From positions 107,942,001 to 108,006,000 of the forward strand of contig OX597816.1 of assembly GCA_951406725.2 (NCBI GenBank): 64,000 nt of DNA, in the 5' to 3' direction. The notes below the pieces were generated by a model that searched no databases, was not told the origin of the DNA, and worked only from the letters and a program-made list of their open reading frames with translations. A program made the translations under genes and the position numbers. This document shows positions 4,377 to 61,720 of this stretch, in pieces. The stretch's first letter is position 1, and every line of letters begins with the position of its first letter. Source of the DNA: Octopus vulgaris (Eukaryota).

Positions 4377-4432
4377 GGCTTATGTGTAATAATAATAAAT
4401 AGTTAACTTGACTATACAGCGTTATGACTTGC

Positions 4433-4819: not shown

Positions 4820-5133
4820 AAGCGCGTGAGTTAGTCGTTTGGGTATTCGGTTCGCGATCGCAAGGCCATGATTTTGTCCGCTGGCGCGTTGCGTATTTGA
4901 GCTAAACACTTTATTTAACGTTGCTCCAGTCCATCCAGCTAGCAAAAATAAGTAGTACCTTTATTTGAAAAGGACTGCCTTGTTACATTTCGTGTCACAC
5001 TGAACCTTCCTCAGAACTATATTAAGGATACGCATGTCTGTGGCGTGTTCAGCCGCTTGCACGTTAATTTCACGAGAGGCTGTTCTGGTGATCGGATCAA
5101 CTGGAACCATCGTCGTCGTAACCGACGGAGTGC
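4820..5133 (+). mobile_element. tRNA/CORE-like SINE (diverged)
   Basis: Same core as above. Its 3' half matches the better-preserved minus-strand copy at 52657-52972 (TTGCACGTTAATTTCACGAG...GTCGTCGTAACCG.CGGAGT). Confidence 0.65.
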
Positions 5134-6551
5134 ATGGTAATTAATGGAGTAGAAGGATGGAATGCAAAGTTTAACAGAACAAATTATTTGATATTTACTG
5201 TAGTGAAGTCACACGGCCTAGTGTTTAGAATTTGGGGCTGCTGATAGTTAGGTCGTGAGCCTATTTCTTGGACAAGGTAGTACGTTGTTCCTAAACAAGA
5301 CATTAAATTTCACGTTATATTAGTGTAGTCATGCTAAAAATAAGTGAGAGTGGCACATTGGCGTTAATCTTGCGACTGGCCTGCGACTCGTTTAGCGAGG
5401 AGTCTTAAAATCTTAGCCAAAACAATTTGAAAATCCGGAACAAGATTCGGACGTATGGAAACTGCAGGCTCGAGTGAGACTTGTTAAGTTGTTAAAGATA
5501 TTGTTATCTAAGATGTAAAGTACTTAAGTAGAACGGAAGGGCTACTTGACTGTGGGTTGCGTTGCTATTGTATTTACATTTAATGCAAAATGAGACAAAA
5601 AATATGGTAGTATGAGGAATGCTAGGCTGGTTATCTAATGTAGCGTTAGAAATGTATAATGCAGAATGTAAGGTGAACGTGTCTTTCAAAGGAAAATTGA
5701 GGATTAACTATCAGTATAATGTGTATCAGCTCAAGTTGAAATTACTATATAAATTATAGATGGTTTAGAAAATATAATTTGGATCTGCTGTTGCAGTTTA
5801 GGGGTAAATTGACTACAAGCCGTTACTTAGGCGTATGAAACAAGAATAATTCGGAGAAATGTAAGCTTTGTCTCTATTAATGCTAAATCATTAGTTAGGA
5901 TTAAGGGTTAATTACAATATAGAGAACTGTATGACTATATTCTAGACTAGGATGTATCGATATCAAATAACTAACCAACTGTATATCTAGTAGGAAGACT
6001 GTTATATATCAATTAATTTGAGATATCAAAAAAGATCAATTACAGTTAATGATCTTTTATAAAAATCAAAAAGCAAAATCATATTTAACTGTAAACCTAT
6101 TACATGAATTGATAATTAGCATCCATAGACACAAATCTAAAATATAATTATACCGTTCTCCAAAACAATACCCACACAACATTCATTATTTTATCAGATT
6201 ATGAAATTTAAAGTTTGAAGATATTCTTTGTTTAATGTTTATTAACAAAATATGCAATATTCTAATTATACGATAAACTTAACTAACGGTTTATACCGAA
6301 GTTATTACTAAATTGGGAAATCCAGCCTAATTGCTTATATTTCCTCTAAATTAGTTTTGTATTACGTATAGAATTTCCAGCTTGATCTGACACTTTTAAT
6401 ACATAGGCAATTAACCTTCATTTATTCTTCTTTAAAACACGTTGACATCCACCTTACTTTCTACATTGTATCATTAAAAGCTAATGTAGCATCTGTGCAG
6501 GAACAATATTTATTTTTCAAAGAAATTTATTGTTTCAGTAGATCACAGATC

Positions 6552-8290
<1,739 letters not shown>

Positions 8291-11177
8291 ACTTTGATAC
8301 TTTGATACTTTGATAGGTTTCGGCCATTATTGGCCCAGGCCATGTCTAACTTAATAGCACCACCTGGTGAAGTCTTTCAAGTCAGAATTTGGGCACTATG
8401 GCCCACTCAAGTAGAGAGTTATTGTTTACAGAGACATATCCGGGTGTAGGGGGTTTATCCGGGATTTCTTGAAGGAATCTGTCCAAAGACTTCTTGAACC
8501 CTATAGGGTCAGTTTCTGTTTTAATGTGTTTTGGTGTAATGTTAAAGAGAGCGGGGCCAATTGAGGTGAAATAATTGTGCCGTATTGTTGTTATGAGATG
8601 AGAGTGCGATTTTTGTTTTGGGCGGATGGCACGGGGCCCAAGCCTTGGATGTACCTTAAAGGTGATGCCAACATCATTTGGGCAATGCTGATGGAATATT
8701 TTCCACATCATGCAGATGATGTAGCGCTCACGACGACGTTGGAGAGAATAGAGTTTTAGCTTTTCTAGTCGACCCCAATAGTCGAGGCCTGTCATGCCAT
8801 CTATCTTTTTTGTGATTGCCCTTTGAGGTGCTTCGACTTTTTTGATACCTTGTATTGTGTGGGGAGACCACAGTGGACAACAGTATTCAAGGTGGGGTCG
8901 GGCAAAAGTGGAGAAGAGAAGGATAATGGTGTGGATATCTCTCGACTGGAAAGTTCTGAGAATCCAGGAACACATTCTGCGGGCCATGTCAACTTTGGTG
9001 TTTATATGAGTGGCCCAGCTTACGTTGTTGTCCACAATTACTCCCAAGTCTCTGATGTTGTTGGACGCCGCGAGAGTTTCACCTGAAGGAAGGGAGTATG
9101 GGAGTTTCAGGGCATCCTCTTTTCCAAAGTGGATTAGCTCAAATTTATCCTCGTTCAGCAGCATATTGTTTTTTTCTGCCCATTGGATAACAGCCAGTAG
9201 ATCTGACTGAAGGCATGTCCGGTCACTCGCCTCATTTATGACCTTCTGTATCTTGGAGTCATCTGCAAAGATTTTTATGTTGCTGTGCTTGATGATGTCA
9301 TTAATGTCATTAATGTAAATGATGAAAAGAAGTGGGCCCAGCACAGTGCCTTGCGGAACGCCACTACTGACTTTGGCTGGGCTTGATTTTACCCCTTCAA
9401 CTACAACATGTTGAGATCTGTCTGTCAGGAAACACTTAATCCATTTCAGTAACTTTCCAGAGACACCAATGTTGGATAGTTTTTTCAATAGGATCTTGTG
9501 ATCGACCCTGTCGAAGGCCTTACTGAAATCAAGGTAGATGACATCGGTGTTGGAGCCCTCTCCCAAAGCTCTCAAAATGTCCTCAAAGTGATGCAGGAGC
9601 TGCGTTAGGCAGTCCCTTCCATTACGGAACCCATGTTGGTTGGAGATCAGCCGTCTGTTGCTTTCCAGAAATTGGGTTATTTGAGATCTCACCACCCTCT
9701 CAAATACCTTGATGATATGAGAGGTGAGTGAGATCGGACGGTAATTCACTGCAAGGGACTTGTTTCCCTTTTTGAAAACTGGGACAACAGACTGGGACAG
9801 AAGGTTTTTTGGAATATAGCCAGCATCCAGTGAGTTTCTACACAGATTAGCAAGGGGAGATGCAAGTTGGTGTCGACACACCTTCAGGACACAAGCAGGG
9901 AACCTATCGGGGCCTACTGCTGAATTGTGTTTTATTTCGTTTATCGCCGCTAAGACATCAGGGGCACTAAACGTTATGTCCGATATAGTGTGTTGGGGGT
10001 TGACATCACTGATACAGCCCAGATCGGCCATATCAGGATTGCTGAAAACAGAGCAGTATTGTTTCTGCAGTATCTCGGCCATGGATTTGGCATTATCTTG
10101 GAGAGTGCCAGTTTCGTCAATTAGAGGGCCTACAGTGGAGACAGTGACCCTGCGTTTCCTCGCAAATGAAAAGAACACTTTGGGGTTGAGTTTGATTTTT
10201 TCAATGGCCCACTTCTCCTCAGCTGATCTTTGGTTATTGATGAGGGACTTCATGCATTGTTGGAGGTTATATTTTTTGGATTCAAGCAGTGCGATAGCCG
10301 TCGAATGTGTGTGTTGCTGTTGGCAGTACTTTAGTTTGTTAATTTTTTTGTTTGTTCTTTTTATTTTTCTGATAATGGTTTTTCTGTTTTGGGGGATTCT
10401 GCACTTTTTGTTCACAGGTCTTGGTGGGGAGTGTTTTGCACATATGTCTGTGACGGTGTCTACAAAGATCTGCCAAGATGTTTTATGGTTGGTGGAGATG
10501 TGTGTATGTGTAAAGGACCAGTCAACATTTGATAGCTCGTTCCTGATTGCATCCCAGTTGGCTTTATGGAGATCCATGTTGTCAAATGGGTGGGCTGGAG
10601 GAAGGTCACTAGGATTAGCTTTCGGCTGGTGGAATTTCATGTTACAGAGAACCATTTCATGGTCTGAAAGAAGGGTTTTTTCCACTGTAACGTTATGTAT
10701 AGTGTTAGTGTGGTTACTAAACACTAGGTCCAAAATGTTCTGATGTCTTGTTGGTGCAAGGACAAGTTGGGACAAGAAAAACTCATTCGTAAAGTCGAAA
10801 AGTGACTCTGCTGCTTCTTTGTCAGCGGTTGAGGCGGGAGTGCTTGGTTTCAAACAGTTTGTAGTCCAGTCAACACAGGGTAGATTGAAGTCTCCCATCA
10901 TGAGTATGTTGCTAGAATGGCACTGTTGAATAAAGCACTTAATGCTGTTGAGGCATTCTTTAAAGCACAGTATGGGTGTTTGGGGCGGCCTATAGAGCCC
11001 AATTACTGTCAGATCATTGGCTTTGTTGTGCACGGTGACTGATTCACAGTAGCCGTTGGAGAATATACTATTTCCATCTGCCGTAAATGAATCATGCAGG
11101 AAAATGGCAGTTCCACCCTTCCTCCTGCCGATACGATCCGCGCGGATGGTTGTGAAATTCTTCACTCTCTCACTCTC
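8291..11177 (-). mobile_element. CR1-group non-LTR retrotransposon (LINE 'A'), 5'-truncated, inserted in (TA)n
   Basis: APE+RT ORF, 67-nt 3'UTR (8315-8381) and 3' tail (ATCAAAGT)x3 at 8291-8314. (TA)n on both flanks. Confidence 0.92.
8382..11165 (-). CDS. ORF2: AP-endonuclease (N-terminally truncated) + reverse transcriptase, 927 aa, no internal stops
   Basis: EN motifs GGTAIF, YRPP, MGDFNLP, ILDLVF, SDH. RT motifs [43 protein letters not shown]-terminal [11 protein letters not shown]. The first EN motifs (N...ETWL) are missing, and the GTG start is the truncation point. Confidence 0.93.
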
Positions 11178-11219
11178 TATATATATATGTATATATATAT
11201 ATGTATATATTTATATATG

Positions 11220-13090: not shown

Positions 13091-13094
<4 letters not shown>

Positions 13095-14846
13095 TACCAC
13101 TGCAGATATAAAATCAGAGGCGGCGACGATAGATTACATCGATATAAAGGAAGACGATGTAACCAAGGCTATAGATGAAATGAAAACAGACTCAGCTACT
13201 GGCCCCGATGGATTCCCGGCAATCCTCCTAAAAGCATGTAAGAGAGTCCTAGCAAGACCACTGCAGTTCCTCTTTCAGAGCTTCCTTGCAGCTGGCAAAC
13301 TTCCAGGAAAACTGAAGGAAGGTAAAATATGCCCCATTCATAAAGGAGGTAGCAGAGCGGAAGCCAAGAACTATAGACCTATCTCTCTGACCTCACACAT
13401 CAGCAAGGTCATGGAACGAATAGTCAGAAGGAAGCTGATCACCTTCCTTGAAGAGAATGACCTGCTGCCCGACACCCAACATGGTTTCCGACCAGGGAGA
13501 AGCTGTTTAACTCAGCTCCTACAACACTATGACTGGGTGCTGAAACGGCTGCTCAACCACTCAAATGTGGAAGTGATATATCTCGACTTTGCAAAGGCCT
13601 TTGATAAAGTCGATCATGGAATGATATGTCACAAACTGCGTGATCTCAACATAGTTGGAAAACTGGGAGAATGGCTTCATGACTTTCTGAAGGATAGAAG
13701 TCAGGTGGTAGTAGCCAATGGGGCCACCTCCATTAACACACAAATAGTGAGCGGTGTTCCGCAGGGCACTGTTCTGGGACCACTACTGTTCATAATGGCC
13801 CTCTCAGACATGCCCTCAGCCACGCAGAGAGCCACGATCACAAGTTATGCAGATGATACAAAAGTCTCACAGGCAATACAGAACCCTGAGGACACTAAAC
13901 ACCTGCAATGTGAGCTGGACGAAATATACAAGTGGGCTGAAAAGAATAGCATGCAGTTCAATGCTGGAAAGTTTCAAGCTTTATACTATCAGCATGCAAA
14001 ACTGAATGCAATACCCAATGAATACACTGGACCCGGAGGGATTGCAATCCCAGAGGCACAATCAGTGCGTGACCTTGGTATTCACATGAGTGATGACGCG
14101 ACCTTTCATGTACATGTTGCTAAACTGACAATGAAATGTAGACGGCTGGCTGGATGGATTCTTAGAACCTTTAGAACAAGAGAACAAGAAACCATGATGG
14201 TCCTCTGGAAGACACTTGTCCTAAGCCACTTTGACTATTGCTCTCAGCTATGGTCACCATCCAGTGTCAAGTTGATCACAGAACTTGAGGCGATCCAACG
14301 AAGCTACACAAAGAAGATAGCCTCTATGCAGAATGTAAGCTACTGGGAAAGACTCAAGAGATTAAAATTATATTCCCTGGAGCGTAGGCGGGAAAGATAT
14401 GCCATAATATACATCTGGAAGATCCTGGAGGGAAGTGTCCTGAACTTTGGCATCGAGAGTTACGCAAATGCCAGAACTGGGCGCCACTGCGTGGTGCCTA
14501 GGACTCCAAACCTGCCATCAAGATGTAGGACAAGATACTGTGATAGCCTGGGCTTCCGAGGCCCACAGCTCTTCAATATCCTCCCGAAGAACCTGAGAGA
14601 CCTGCATGGGGTGGATACAGATGTCTTTAAAATGAAGCTGGATCTCTTCCTGTCAGGTGTCCCAGATGAACCAACTTCACGGCAGGAGGGGCAGATGAGG
14701 GCAGCTGCATCGAACTCTCTCATGCACCAAATAGCAGTTGCTAGAAAGCCTCCATGAAGTGAAACCAAGTAGCAACACCAAATGGCGGTGCCCCAGCATG
14801 GCCACAGCTCATAAGCTGAAACTAGAATCAATCAATCAATCAATCA
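13091..14846 (+). mobile_element. CR1-group LINE ('B'), 5'-truncated just upstream of RT, inserted in (TA)n
   Basis: RT ORF, 3'UTR 14758-14825 and tail (AATC)x5 at 14826-14845. (TA)n on both flanks. Confidence 0.92.
13093..14757 (+). CDS. reverse transcriptase domain + C-terminus of LINE ORF2 (554 aa, open frame, no true start)
   Basis: [66 protein letters not shown]. The upstream part of track ORF 12574..14757 is only microsatellite. Confidence 0.92.
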
Positions 14847-15110
<264 letters not shown>

Positions 15111-15392
15111 TAATTAATAAGGGTGAGAGAATTAGATACTAATTTAATAGTATATTTATTCCACACCAAGTGGCCTAGTGCTACGAGAAACCTGGATTAT
15201 TATAATATTTTATAACATATTATAATATTTTCACAAAATAAATATAAGAGAGTGGTCACTATATTGATCACTCTAGCACCAGTTAATCCAAAAGGTTTCA
15301 ACCACGAAAAATACATGTTTCCCATGAAAGCCGGTACGACTGTTAGCTCACACGGACAGGGCAAATAAAAAATAACAAAAATACAGATTATT

Positions 15393-15468
15393 TTGGGACA
15401 ATTGTTTCGCTATTAATGAATTAAATGTAATATTACTTACAGTAATCCATTTGTAGCTCTTCAGCCAA
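15393..15468 (-). ncRNA. type I hammerhead ribozyme
   Basis: Reverse complement of the motif described at 17668-17743. Confidence 0.85.
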
Positions 15469-15926
15469 GACTATCTGGATGAAATCCACTCAATCACACG
15501 CCAGATTTTACCATAACGATAAATACGCGTGCGGTTCAATTGATTACATCGGACGTTATAATTCAAATGCCCCAACCAACAGCGCGCCAAACTCTCACGG
15601 AAAACAAATACAGCATTTAGAAATAAATGCAGCATAATTATAATTAATTAATAAGGGTGAGAGAATTAGATACTAATTTAATAGTATATTTATTCCACAC
15701 CAAGTGGCCTAGTGCTACGAGAAACCTGGATTATTATAATATTTTATAACATATTATAATATTTTCACAAAATAAATATAAGAGAGTGGTCACTATATTG
15801 ATCACTCTAGCACCAGTTAATCCAAAAGGTTTCAACCACGAAAAATACATGTTTCCCATGAAAGCCGGTACGACTGTTAGCTCACACGGACAGGGCAAAT
15901 AAAAAATAACAAAAATACAGATTATT

Positions 15927-16002
15927 TTGGGACAATTGTTTCGCTATTAATGAATTAAATGTAATATTACTTACAGTAATCCATTTGTAGCTCTTCAGCC
16001 AA
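15927..16002 (-). ncRNA. type I hammerhead ribozyme
   Basis: Identical copy in unit 2. Confidence 0.85.
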
Positions 16003-16460
16003 GACTATCTGGATGAAATCCACTCAATCACACGCCAGATTTTACCATAACGATAAATACGCGTGCGGTTCAATTGATTACATCGGACGTTATAATTCAA
16101 ATGCCCCAACCAACAGCGCGCCAAACTCTCACGGAAAACAAATACAGCATTTAGAAATAAATGCAGCATAATTATAATTAATTAATAAGGGTGAGAGAAT
16201 TAGATACTAATTTAATAGTATATTTATTCCACACCAAGTGGCCTAGTGCTACGAGAAACCTGGATTATTATAATATTTTATAACATATTATAATATTTTC
16301 ACAAAATAAATATAAGAGAGTGGTCACTATATTGATCACTCTAGCACCAGTTAATCCAAAAGGTTTCAACCACGAAAAATACATGTTTCCCATGAAAGCC
16401 GGTACGACTGTTAGCTCACACGGACAGGGCAAATAAAAAATAACAAAAATACAGATTATT

Positions 16461-16536
16461 TTGGGACAATTGTTTCGCTATTAATGAATTAAATGTAATA
16501 TTACTTACAGTAATCCATTTGTAGCTCTTCAGCCAA
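16461..16536 (-). ncRNA. type I hammerhead ribozyme
   Basis: Identical copy in unit 3. Confidence 0.85.
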
Positions 16537-16994
16537 GACTATCTGGATGAAATCCACTCAATCACACGCCAGATTTTACCATAACGATAAATACGCGTGC
16601 GGTTCAATTGATTACATCGGACGTTATAATTCAAATGCCCCAACCAACAGCGCGCCAAACTCTCACGGAAAACAAATACAGCATTTAGAAATAAATGCAG
16701 CATAATTATAATTAATTAATAAGGGTGAGAGAATTAGATACTAATTTAATAGTATATTTATTCCACACCAAGTGGCCTAGTGCTACGAGAAACCTGGATT
16801 ATTATAATATTTTATAACATATTATAATATTTTCACAAAATAAATATAAGAGAGTGGTCACTATATTGATCACTCTAGCACCAGTTAATCCAAAAGGTTT
16901 CAACCACGAAAAATACATGTTTCCCATGAAAGCCGGTACGACTGTTAGCTCACACGGACAGGGCAAATAAAAAATAACAAAAATACAGATTATT

Positions 16995-17070
16995 TTGGGA
17001 CAATTGTTTCGCTATTAATGAATTAAATGTAATATTACTTACAGTAATCCATTTGTAGCTCTTCAGCCAA
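16995..17070 (-). ncRNA. type I hammerhead ribozyme
   Basis: Identical copy in unit 4. Confidence 0.85.
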
Positions 17071-17667
17071 GACTATCTGGATGAAATCCACTCAATCACA
17101 CGCCAGATTTTACCATAACGATAAATACGCGTGCGGTTCAATTGATTACATCGGACGTTATAATTCAAATGCCCCAACCAACAGCGCGCCAAACTCTCAC
17201 GGAAAACAAATACAGCATTTAGAAATAAATGCAGCATAATTATAATTAATTAATAAGGGTGAGAGAATTAGATACTAATTTAATAGTATATTTATTCCAC
17301 ACCAAGTGGCCTAGTGCTACGAGAAACCTGGATTATTATAATATTTTATAACATATTATAATATTTTGTGAAAATATTATAATATGTTATAAAATATTAT
17401 AATAATCCAGGTTTCTCGTAGCACTAGGCCACTTGGTGTGGAATAAATATACTATTAAATTAGTATCTAATTCTCTCACCCTTATTAATTAATTATAATT
17501 ATGCTGCATTTATTTCTAAATGCTGTATTTGTTTTCCGTGAGAGTTTGGCGCGCTGTTGGTTGGGGCATTTGAATTATAACGTCCGATGTAATCAATTGA
17601 ACCGCACGCGTATTTATCGTTATGGTAAAATCTGGCGTGTGATTGAGTGGATTTCATCCAGATAGTC

Positions 17668-17743
17668 TTGGCTGAAGAGCTACAAATGGATTACTGTAAG
17701 TAATATTACATTTAATTCATTAATAGCGAAACAATTGTCCCAA
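17668..17743 (+). ncRNA. type I hammerhead ribozyme
   Basis: TTGG-CTGAAGA-[GCTA...TAGC]-GAAA-CAATTG-TC^CCAA. Full core (CUGANGA, GAAA, UH), helix I TTGG/CCAA, helix II closed by G-C, helix III A-U and C-G with an AATT loop. Predicted cleavage after C17739. Confidence 0.87.
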
Positions 17744-18201
17744 AATAATCTGTATTTTTGTTATTTTTTATTTGCCCTGTCCGTGTGAGCTAACAGTCGT
17801 ACCGGCTTTCATGGGAAACATGTATTTTTCGTGGTTGAAACCTTTTGGATTAACTGGTGCTAGAGTGATCAATATAGTGACCACTCTCTTATATTTATTT
17901 TGTGAAAATATTATAATATGTTATAAAATATTATAATAATCCAGGTTTCTCGTAGCACTAGGCCACTTGGTGTGGAATAAATATACTATTAAATTAGTAT
18001 CTAATTCTCTCACCCTTATTAATTAATTATAATTATGCTGCATTTATTTCTAAATGCTGTATTTGTTTTCCGTGAGAGTTTGGCGCGCTGTTGGTTGGGG
18101 CATTTGAATTATAACGTCCGATGTAATCAATTGAACCGCACGCGTATTTATCGTTATGGTAAAATCTGGCGTGTGATTGAGTGGATTTCATCCAGATAGT
18201 C

Positions 18202-18277
18202 TTGGCTGAAGAGCTACAAATGGATTACTGTAAGTAATATTACATTTAATTCATTAATAGCGAAACAATTGTCCCAA
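18202..18277 (+). ncRNA. type I hammerhead ribozyme
   Basis: Identical copy 534 bp downstream. Confidence 0.85.
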
Positions 18278-18687
18278 AATAATCTGTATTTTTGTTATTT
18301 TTTATTTGCCCTGTCCGTGTGAGCTAACAGTCGTACCGGCTTTCATGGGAAACATGTATTTTTCGTGGTTGAAACCTTTTGGATTAACTGGTGCTAGAGT
18401 GATCAATATAGTGACCACTCTCTTATATTTATTTTGTGAAAATATTATAATATGTTATAAAATATTATAATAATCCAGGTTTCTCGTAGCACTAGGCCAC
18501 TTGGTGTGGAATAAATATATATTATAGTATCTAATATAATATATATTATGCTGCATTTATCTATGCTATATATGAGAGTTTGGCGCCTGTTATGGGGTAT
18601 TTGAATATACGTCCGATTATACCGCACGCGTATTTATCGTTATGGTAAAATCTGGCGTGTGATTGAGTGGATTTCATCCAGATAGTC

Positions 18688-18763
18688 TTGGCTGAAGAGC
18701 TACAAATGGATTACTGTAAGTAATATTACATTTAATTCATTAATAGCGAAACAATTGTCCCAA
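18688..18763 (+). ncRNA. type I hammerhead ribozyme
   Basis: Identical copy in the last, partly degraded unit. Confidence 0.83.
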
Positions 18764-18916
18764 AATAATCTGTATTTTTGTTATTTTTTATTTGCCCTGT
18801 CCGTGTGAGCTAACAGTCGTACTGGCTTTCATGGGAAACATGTATTTTTCGTGGTTGAAACCTTTTGGATTAACTGGTGCTAGAGTGATCAATATAGTGA
18901 CCACTCTCTTATATTT

Positions 18917-20956
<2,040 letters not shown>

Positions 20957-21167
20957 ATAAAATATTTGAAACAAAGATAGGTAATCAAAATATATATAAT
21001 ATATATGTAAAAATTGTATTTTTAGTTGATTTATTTTTTTTTAGTATATATAAATGTATAATAAAAGAAAAATATTTGTATATAATTTTTTTTCTATATT
21101 CTTTATGATCTTTTTATTTATATACAACCTCCCAAAAAAAACATACACCAAAACAAAAAAAAAAAAA

Positions 21168-22700
<1,533 letters not shown>

Positions 22701-50470: not shown

Positions 50471-50995
50471 AGGCGGTGAGCTGGCAGAATCATTAGCACG
50501 CCGGGCGAAATGCGTAGCCGTATTTCGTCTGCCGTAATGTTCTGAGTTCAAATTCCGCCGCGGTTGACTCTGCCTTTCATCCTTTCGGGGTCGATATATT
50601 AAGTACCAGTTACGCACTGGGGTCGATTAATCGGCTTAATCCGTTTGTCTATCCTTGTTTTTCCTCTCTGTGTTTAGCCCCTTGCGGGGTAGTAAAGAAA
50701 TAGGTATTTCGTTTGCCGCTACGTTCTGAGTTCAAATTCCGCCGAGGTCGACTTTACCTTTCATCCTTTCGGGGTCGATTAAATAAGTACTAGTTACTGT
50801 TTGTCCCCTCTGTGTTTAGTTCCTTGTGGGTAGTAAAGAAATAGGTATTTCATCTCTCTTTACGTTCTGAGTTCAAGATCTCCCGGGGTCGGCTTTACCT
50901 TTTATCCTTTCGGGGTTGATAAATTAAGTACCACTTGCATACTAGCATCGACCTAATTGACTGACCCCCTTCCCCAAAATTTCGAGATAGAAAAG
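50471..50995 (+). mobile_element. Meta-like SINE, trimeric form
   Basis: Head at 50471. The GTATTTC...GTTCTGAGTTCAA module starts again at ~50704 and ~50845, each time after AAAGAAATAG. Confidence 0.85.
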
Positions 50996-61199: not shown

Positions 61200-61720
61200 A
61201 AACAATTTGGGGGGAGGGGCCAGTCGATTAGATTGACCCCAGTACGTAACTGGTGCTTAACTTATCGAGCTAAGTAAGCATTTCGCCCGGCATGCTAACG
61301 TTTCTAATTTTTTTATTGCCCACAAGTGGCTAAACATAGAGGAGACAAACAAAGGCAGACAAAGGGATTAAGTCGATTCCATCAATCCCAGTGCGCAACT
61401 GGTAATTAATTTATCGACCCCGAAAGGATGAAAGGCAAAGTCGACCTCGGTGGAATTTGAACTCGGAACGTAAAGACAGACGAAATACCTATTTCTTTAC
61501 TACCCACAAGGGGCTAAACATAGAGTGGACAAACAAGGACAGACAAACGGATTAAGTCGATTACTTGACCCCAGTGCGTAACTGGTACTTAATTTATCGA
61601 CCCTGAAAGGATGAAAGGCAAAGTCGACCTCTGCGGAATTTGAACTCAGAACGTAAAGGCAGACGAAATACAGCGAAGCATTTCGCTCGCCGTGCTAACG
61701 TTTCTGCCAGCTCGCCACCT
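61200..61720 (-). mobile_element. Meta-like SINE multimer
   Basis: Head at 61720. Body module repeated at ~61490-61670 and ~61310-61489, with a further fragment to 61200. Confidence 0.85.

Follow-up and report, generated by a model that had tools for sequence, protein, structure and literature searches.

Hammerhead arrays in Octopus vulgaris and the closest described systems

Animal retrozymes have been reported to be expressed as RNA circles that can be closed by RtcB, and it has been proposed that the reverse transcriptase (RT) of Penelope-like elements (PLEs) copies them into tandem complementary DNA (cDNA) (PMC7229834). Their unit lengths range from 51 to 972 bp (Li, Clavereau and Pollet 2026, 10.64898/2026.07.22.740005). 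Insertions of PLEs often carry a tail at one end together with an inverted 5'-truncated copy (PMC8557442), and in vitro a lizard PLE, predicted to act as a dimer, cuts and extends both target strands, with two internal RT start sites bounding its genomic tail (PMC11167929). Here we describe a tandem array of hammerhead ribozyme motifs at positions 15111-18919 of a 64,000-nucleotide stretch of the Octopus vulgaris genome (contig OX597816.1, 107,942,001 to 108,006,000; hereafter the window), which represents a single insertion of a retrozyme family that is young, non-coding and dispersed. The class of element is already known; what is new is a two-site rule for the array ends and the fixation of variants across whole arrays, which together form a testable footprint.

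The array is built of tandem 534-bp units and has two arms, which meet head-to-head at 17369. The left arm (15111-17369) has its ribozyme sense on the minus strand, carries four hammerheads and has its outer 3' end at unit ~286-292 (site B); the right arm (17369-18919) has its ribozyme sense on the plus strand, carries three and has its outer 3' end at unit ~160 (site A). Unit numbering starts at the predicted cleavage site, and the stretch from one such site to the next at 17740-18273 (plus strand) is a full 534-nt unit, the predicted monomer or circle. In this reference unit the interval from site A (unit 160) to site B (unit 292) lies at 17900-18031 (plus strand) and is the analogue of the PLE tail described in PMC11167929. 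The 5' ends of both arms meet in a short AT-rich hairpin at 17362-17376 (unit ~157-165), and the inverted arms are 100% identical over 16219-17367 and 17371-18519. Seven identical type I hammerhead motifs, noted in a first-pass annotation of the window and confirmed here to the base, are found on the minus strand at 15393-15468, 15927-16002, 16461-16536 and 16995-17070, and on the plus strand at 17668-17743, 18202-18277 and 18688-18763, the latter three with predicted cleavage after 17739 (a GUC site), 18273 and 18759. Motif spacing is 534 bp, apart from the last plus-strand unit of 486 bp, which is shortened by a deletion-rich stretch in the last full unit (18520-18616, plus strand, 48 gap letters); these deletions may represent sequencing error or low-fidelity copying. 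The same annotation had described the unit as lacking a long open reading frame (ORF) and the array as ending in (TA)n on both sides, and both descriptions hold: the longest ATG-initiated ORF is 54 aa, and the target microsatellite occupies 14846-15112 on the left and 18910-22616 on the right. The unit has a GC content of 33% and folds better than its shuffles (z = -7.3 as a linear and -8.4 as a circular molecule).

Motif 5 (17668-17743) shows the layout of the ribozyme, with helix I, the CUGAAGA core, a long helix II of ~49 nt with a 6-nt loop, GAAA, and a helix III capped by a palindromic tetraloop. The CUGANGA, GAAA and NUH core elements are all present, with helices I, II and III in type I order. 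Complete motifs occur in all seven full units of the window, and cores are intact in 184 of 187 cases over 40 loci. A type I descriptor matched the 64-kb window seven times, at exactly these motifs, and none of 2000 shuffled units. Nine ribozyme motifs from three sister families (see below) were then compared. Their catalytic core is invariant, and double-sided changes were found at six of six inner helix I pairs and at four helix II pairs; the last pair of outer helix I holds only in the family of the window. Helix II is 95% paired, 92% of cells pair overall, and none of 500 shuffles reached this score, a control that can be inflated by the relatedness of the motifs. Because the stems covary while the core stays invariant, it is likely that the hammerhead fold is under selection as RNA. 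In family 3, one of the sister families, the base of helix II has a U-U mismatch like that described for one axolotl motif (PMC7229834). A sigma-70 promoter scan gave results at chance level, this model being irrelevant to an animal.

In every feature that can be tested on sequence, the family is a metazoan non-LTR (long terminal repeat) retrozyme: non-coding tandem units with one type I hammerhead each, dispersal, a strongly self-paired monomer, a GC content below ~45% and co-occurring PLEs. The arrays are pure unit repeats in which no LTR, primer binding site (PBS) or polypurine tract (PPT) structure was seen, PBS and PPT not having been searched separately. A helix III of two pairs with a tetraloop is also the arrangement in invertebrate retrozyme motifs (PMC7229834). 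At 534 nt the unit is longer than the cloned retrozyme circles of 170-400 nt, for which circular RNA has been shown, and the ~49-nt helix II is a further difference (PMC7229834). The first-pass annotation had placed the unit above the typical length of animal retrozymes, but it is not exceptional and falls within the reported range (Li et al. 2026).

The endonuclease-bearing (EN+) PLEs resemble the family in a number of ways, namely two internal RT starts bounding a tail, a tail at one end, an inverted 5'-truncated partner, tandem copies, AT-rich or (TA)n targets and a type I hammerhead (PMC11167929, PMC8557442). The family differs from them in having a unit without an ORF and a tail of ~130 nt, as against the printed 30-40. 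Like the MRC1-type elements of Chlamys it is non-autonomous and multicopy in head-to-tail order, and those elements are PLE-mobilised; however, they resemble the 3' end of their autonomous partner and lack canonical hammerheads, whereas no homology to a partner was found here (PMC8557442). Satellite 2 of newt and axolotl likewise consists of hammerhead units in tandem, in which a palindromic loop 3 makes cleavage as a dimer possible (PMC7229834), but its units are ~330-350 nt and very high-copy, in contrast to the ~2,100 units in ~700 dispersed, TA-targeted insertions of the octopus family.

Paired end sites and array-wide variants

A DNA search of the octopus genome returned 766 candidate places, the best 40 of which were scored and reach 99-100% identity, spread over many contigs. 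Copies of this dispersed family are 85-100% identical. A 27-mer across the predicted cleavage site has 2,121 exact genomic copies (control 0), and the first 100 places listed for it group into 33 loci, from which a total of ~700 insertions is extrapolated. In total 72 loci were studied, comprising the window, 39 places from the DNA search and 32 consecutive loci on contig C1; the latter served as a held-out set taken from the 27-mer listing, the 33rd locus being already in the sample.

The outer (3') ends of the arrays fall at two fixed unit sites ~130 nt apart, A (159-164) and B (284-293). Arms in both orientations are present at 43 of the 72 loci, of which 40 end cleanly at A on one side and B on the other, two do so near the sites (L047 ends at 273 and L246 at ~180), and one, L034, pairs B with a 99-nt off-site piece; none of the 43 ends in A+A or B+B. 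Single-arm loci (n = 29) include 14 ending at A, 14 at B and one near B. Because single arms split evenly, independent choice of the sites would leave about half of the two-armed loci discordant, and the pairing seen departs from independent choice with p ~1e-12. The same A+B rule is followed by a sister family in 10 of 10 readable loci (five were unreadable and one duplicate was dropped) and by an autonomous PLE family encoding 775 aa, where it holds in 9 of 9 two-arm copies that were readable, with one unclear, and three copies of Hydra-type autonomous PLEs obey it. Such strict one-of-each pairing contrasts with the available text on PLEs, where no strand difference was reported in bulk (Frangieh et al. 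2024, PMC11167929) and the tail was described as 'often only at one end' (Craig et al. 2021, PMC8557442).

These ends also bear on whether the palindrome of the window is real. A fold-back read or assembly artefact would yield a near-perfect palindrome such as this one, in which one arm has a deletion-rich stretch, but it would leave an identical end on both sides, and 42 other loci are inverted as well, with different joints, unequal arms, fixed A and B ends and, in some, target duplications. An artefact is therefore extremely unlikely. Other deletion-rich units were seen at L261:6122-7076, L262:4534-5047, L038:5547-6020, L244:3985-4500 and L065, and they often lie in the shorter arm near the 3' end, where palindromes may have caused sequencing errors or early RT may have been of low fidelity.

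A (TA)n flank is present at 69 of the 72 loci, and clear target duplications of 13-15 bp were found at L036, L039 and L044. Two fixed 3' ends bounding a tail, an inverted 5'-truncated partner and an AT-rich target make up a footprint of PLE type. The inner (5') ends lie at many positions across the unit, with 10 of 115 within 15 nt of the predicted cleavage site (p = 0.11); an initial excess there (13/115, p = 0.013) was dropped when the joints were read by eye. Since 5' ends are not concentrated at the predicted cleavage site, the template has no hard end at this position.

Substitutions were counted at positions covered by three or more segments, once segment ends had been trimmed and deletion-rich segments dropped. 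Among variants shared by at least three loci, 175 are fixed array-wide, four are present in all but one unit, seven in a single unit and none at intermediate frequency. Private variants are fixed in 16 cases, single in 65 and intermediate in four. Several variants are fixed across both inverted arms. Most simply, a new change can come to fill a whole array, both arms included, through a template of one unit which is copied many times.

Taken with the end rule, we consider it probable that a PLE RT-endonuclease dimer primes from both cut strands on one 534-nt RNA circle and copies round it repeatedly. In this route the tandem array would first be transcribed in the ribozyme sense, and the hammerheads, given their conserved core and covarying stems, are predicted to cut the transcript into 534-nt monomers. 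These would be closed, probably by RtcB, by analogy with axolotl and mussel retrozymes in vitro. A PLE GIY-YIG enzyme would then cut both strands of AT-rich DNA, giving rise to the 13-15 bp duplications that were observed. One RT subunit would start at A (unit 160) and the other at B (unit 290), one at each DNA end, in keeping with the observed end positions, and each would lap the circle 0.3 to 13 times. Finally, the two cDNA ends would be joined by microhomology to give the head-to-head arrays seen here, or one arm would be lost.

A number of observations weigh against this route. The helix III of the predicted ribozyme is just 2 bp, and a search of the unit with the Rfam hammerhead models, suggested in the first-pass annotation, returned no match at gathering score or at E<=10, probably due to the ~49-nt helix II. 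One autonomous Hydra-type insertion, L160, ends in A+A and is an exception to the pairing rule. Among six PLE families sampled, no terminus was clearly homologous to the unit, although the ribozyme region has a weak similarity to a Hydra-type pseudo-LTR (pLTR) (BLAST E = 0.005 over 44 nt; profile E = 0.1). The counts cover 72 of ~700 loci, 40 of which were picked by their likeness to the window. Array fixation could also come partly from DNA-level homogenisation after insertion.

The remaining points concern the template itself. In vitro, the dominant template of the PAc PLE is uncleaved linear RNA, and ribozyme mutants still insert (PMC11167929); most tested retrozyme dimers failed to cleave, with one of nine predicted Xenopus dimers cleaving in vitro (Li et al. 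2026). Both would fit mobilisation by PLEs from long, uncleaved linear multimers, with the ribozyme in a minor role and the arrays homogenised or expanded later as DNA, as would adjacent paired variants at L023 and L029 which resemble unit duplication. On linear multimers, however, both primers could share one site, yet this is not seen at any of the 43 two-armed loci (a fixed dimer geometry could also explain this). Shared variants at intermediate frequency are absent although singletons are common, variants are fixed across both inverted arms, and the ribozyme stems covary between families. On balance we regard this alternative as unlikely.

Mixed sites within arrays are likewise not predicted by a clean single circle without stochastic miscopying. 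Private variants at intermediate frequency occur at L029, L053, L251 and L259. At L259:1305-8454 one T-to-C change is present in 4 of 13 units of one arm, in scattered, non-periodic order; L251 has two mixed positions, and at L029 and L053 the variant is in two units each. The junctions of L021 and L023 are mixed right at the predicted cleavage point. Such sites may reflect the stochastic miscopying, at each lap, of a single template position, or else later DNA-level events, and it is possible that the scattered change of L259 records a modified template base. At L021 the identical three changed letters recur at two junctions between units and again at the joint of the inverted arms (4386-4388, 5067-5069, 5601-5603), which suggests repeated template switching at the predicted cleavage and ligation point. 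An explanation of L021 as the record of a dimer circle with alternating junctions was dropped, as the changed letters are those of the inversion joint and a template switch fits better.

The position of these changes, exactly at the predicted cleavage point, would also suit a monomer template that has been cleaved but not ligated and whose ends are held together by helix I, with RT jumping from the 5' to the 3' end of this RNA at every round. A nicked circle of this kind accounts equally well for the fixation of variants and for the one-of-each rule. However, the first 40 loci contain 194 junctions, of which 189 either match exactly or differ by a family variant, with bases neither added nor lost at any junction, and the 5' ends are, as described above, not enriched there. 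It is thus quite an improbable template, and the copying of a closed 534-nt circle is retained as the preferred route.

Independence from Penelope-like elements and candidate helpers

It was also possible that the arrays are the pLTRs of an autonomous PLE, or a satellite amplified as DNA, with no independent element. Type I hammerheads, a tail and inversion are pLTR features (PMC8557442, PMC11167929), retrozymes have been reported as pLTR-derived (Li et al. 2026), and the first-pass annotation had itself raised the possibility that the copies are simply termini of full PLEs. No PLE ORF is contiguous with an array at any of the 72 loci. In the nearest cases, L034 and L261, the PLE is separated from the array by microsatellite and by its own termini. 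Because none of the arrays is joined to a PLE ORF, the family is an independent non-LTR retrozyme and not a pLTR. The unit is carried by none of the sampled PLE families, the arrays are dispersed with target duplications, and there are at least five sister families without an ORF; the pLTR or satellite reading is largely refuted and we consider it very unlikely. The earlier proposal of a young, non-autonomous tandem hammerhead element is borne out by this independence together with the dispersal, the 85-100% identity and the PLE-type footprints.

The sister families are older and have units of ~490-540 nt. Additional ORF-less retrozyme families of this kind were noted at L197, L192 and L202 (family 3), L112:4009-4233, L163:8510-9070, L120 and L214. 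Profile matches lying near PLEs (L112, L120, L163, L172, L214) had been considered as helper termini and proved to be further such sister families. There are also small hammerhead-bearing, TA-flanked and sometimes inverted elements with a short helix II (L068, L072, L073, L063, L069), which are unrelated to the unit by BLAST.

Several young intact PLE families are present in the genome. Three of them carry the Hydra-clade marks RWK, DKT and CxCx5C and insert in (TA)n; their hammerheads have a long helix II, like that of the unit, and their tails of ~115-185 nt are close to the 130 nt of the retrozyme. Among the PLEs of this genome, those of the Hydra clade are the most likely candidate helpers. 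Intact members (L155, L160, L165, L104) encode 800-1,090 aa and have long 3' untranslated regions and tails of 115-185 nt; printed Hydra elements are <3 kb with tails of 30-40 nt, shorter than those seen here. An 806-aa ORF of this type was not recognised by Pfam. At L104:5850-5925, L109, L114 and L123, members of one PLE family, the ORF is followed on its 3' side by a second hammerhead that differs from the upstream one. The 775-aa PLE family mentioned above (L232:4799-9068 and relatives) is very young, with many identical copies and 4,270-bp tandem units, a 30-nt tail and a hammerhead in which C replaces U4 (CCGAAGA). A young Neptune-type PLE (L209-L213) combines a 1,008-aa frame with a minimal hammerhead and, on the 3' side, a long (CA)-rich region.

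Most of the unit is covered by contigs from four presumed RNA runs; such contigs do not reveal strand, ends or circularity, carry-over of DNA present in 2,000 copies would look alike, and they were not used as evidence. A loose contig end, which resembles what we take to be a template-switch oligo, lies at a matching internal hexamer and was not read as a true 5' end.

Elsewhere in the window, an open frame of 942 aa (8385-11210, minus strand), which encodes endonuclease and RT domains, represents a long interspersed nuclear element (LINE) between two long (TA)n tracts, and, just to the left of the (TA)n tract in which the array lies, a 5'-truncated LINE RT frame of 554 aa (13093-14757, plus strand) ends in a short tetranucleotide tail. 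Tandem repeats of 141 and 183 bp, in two copies each, are found at 50656-50931 and 61307-61671 and resemble fragments of short interspersed nuclear elements.

Implications for retrozymes and Penelope-like elements

Within the literature covered, supplements and subscription papers lying outside its scope, we found no cephalopod retrozyme, no twin priming of retrozymes and, supplements again being outside the scope, no description of paired A/B ends or of array-wide fixation. A look-up with the sequence itself gave no match. The available text of PMC7229834 and of Li et al. 2026 makes no mention of two-armed head-to-head insertions, fixed A/B ends or array-wide fixation, and that of PMC7229834 has no match for 'inverted', 'target site', 'microsatellite' or 'cephalopod'. 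The main text of a 2026 octopus repeat annotation (PMC13282606), as available, has no match for hammerhead, ribozyme or retrozyme.

A more far-reaching interpretation can be offered tentatively, and we hold it to be somewhat less than even in likelihood. The arrays may be direct recordings of single RNA circles, made by a dimeric PLE RT that binds one circle at two sites and, from both ends of a staggered break, copies it over up to 13 laps. In that case the changes at L259 and at L021 and L023 would record modified bases and the junction chemistry of individual circular RNAs, and the same twin start would account for tails and inverted copies in all PLEs.

The return of retrozymes to the genome by PLE RT of a circle has so far been a hypothesis, and the octopus family gives countable footprints of it. 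The same footprints bear on the origin of the PLE tail and inverted copies, which is an open question in PMC11167929 and PMC8557442. Since the start sites are exactly placed on a 534-nt RNA and the genome also encodes candidate helper proteins that are young and intact, the mechanism is testable in vitro.

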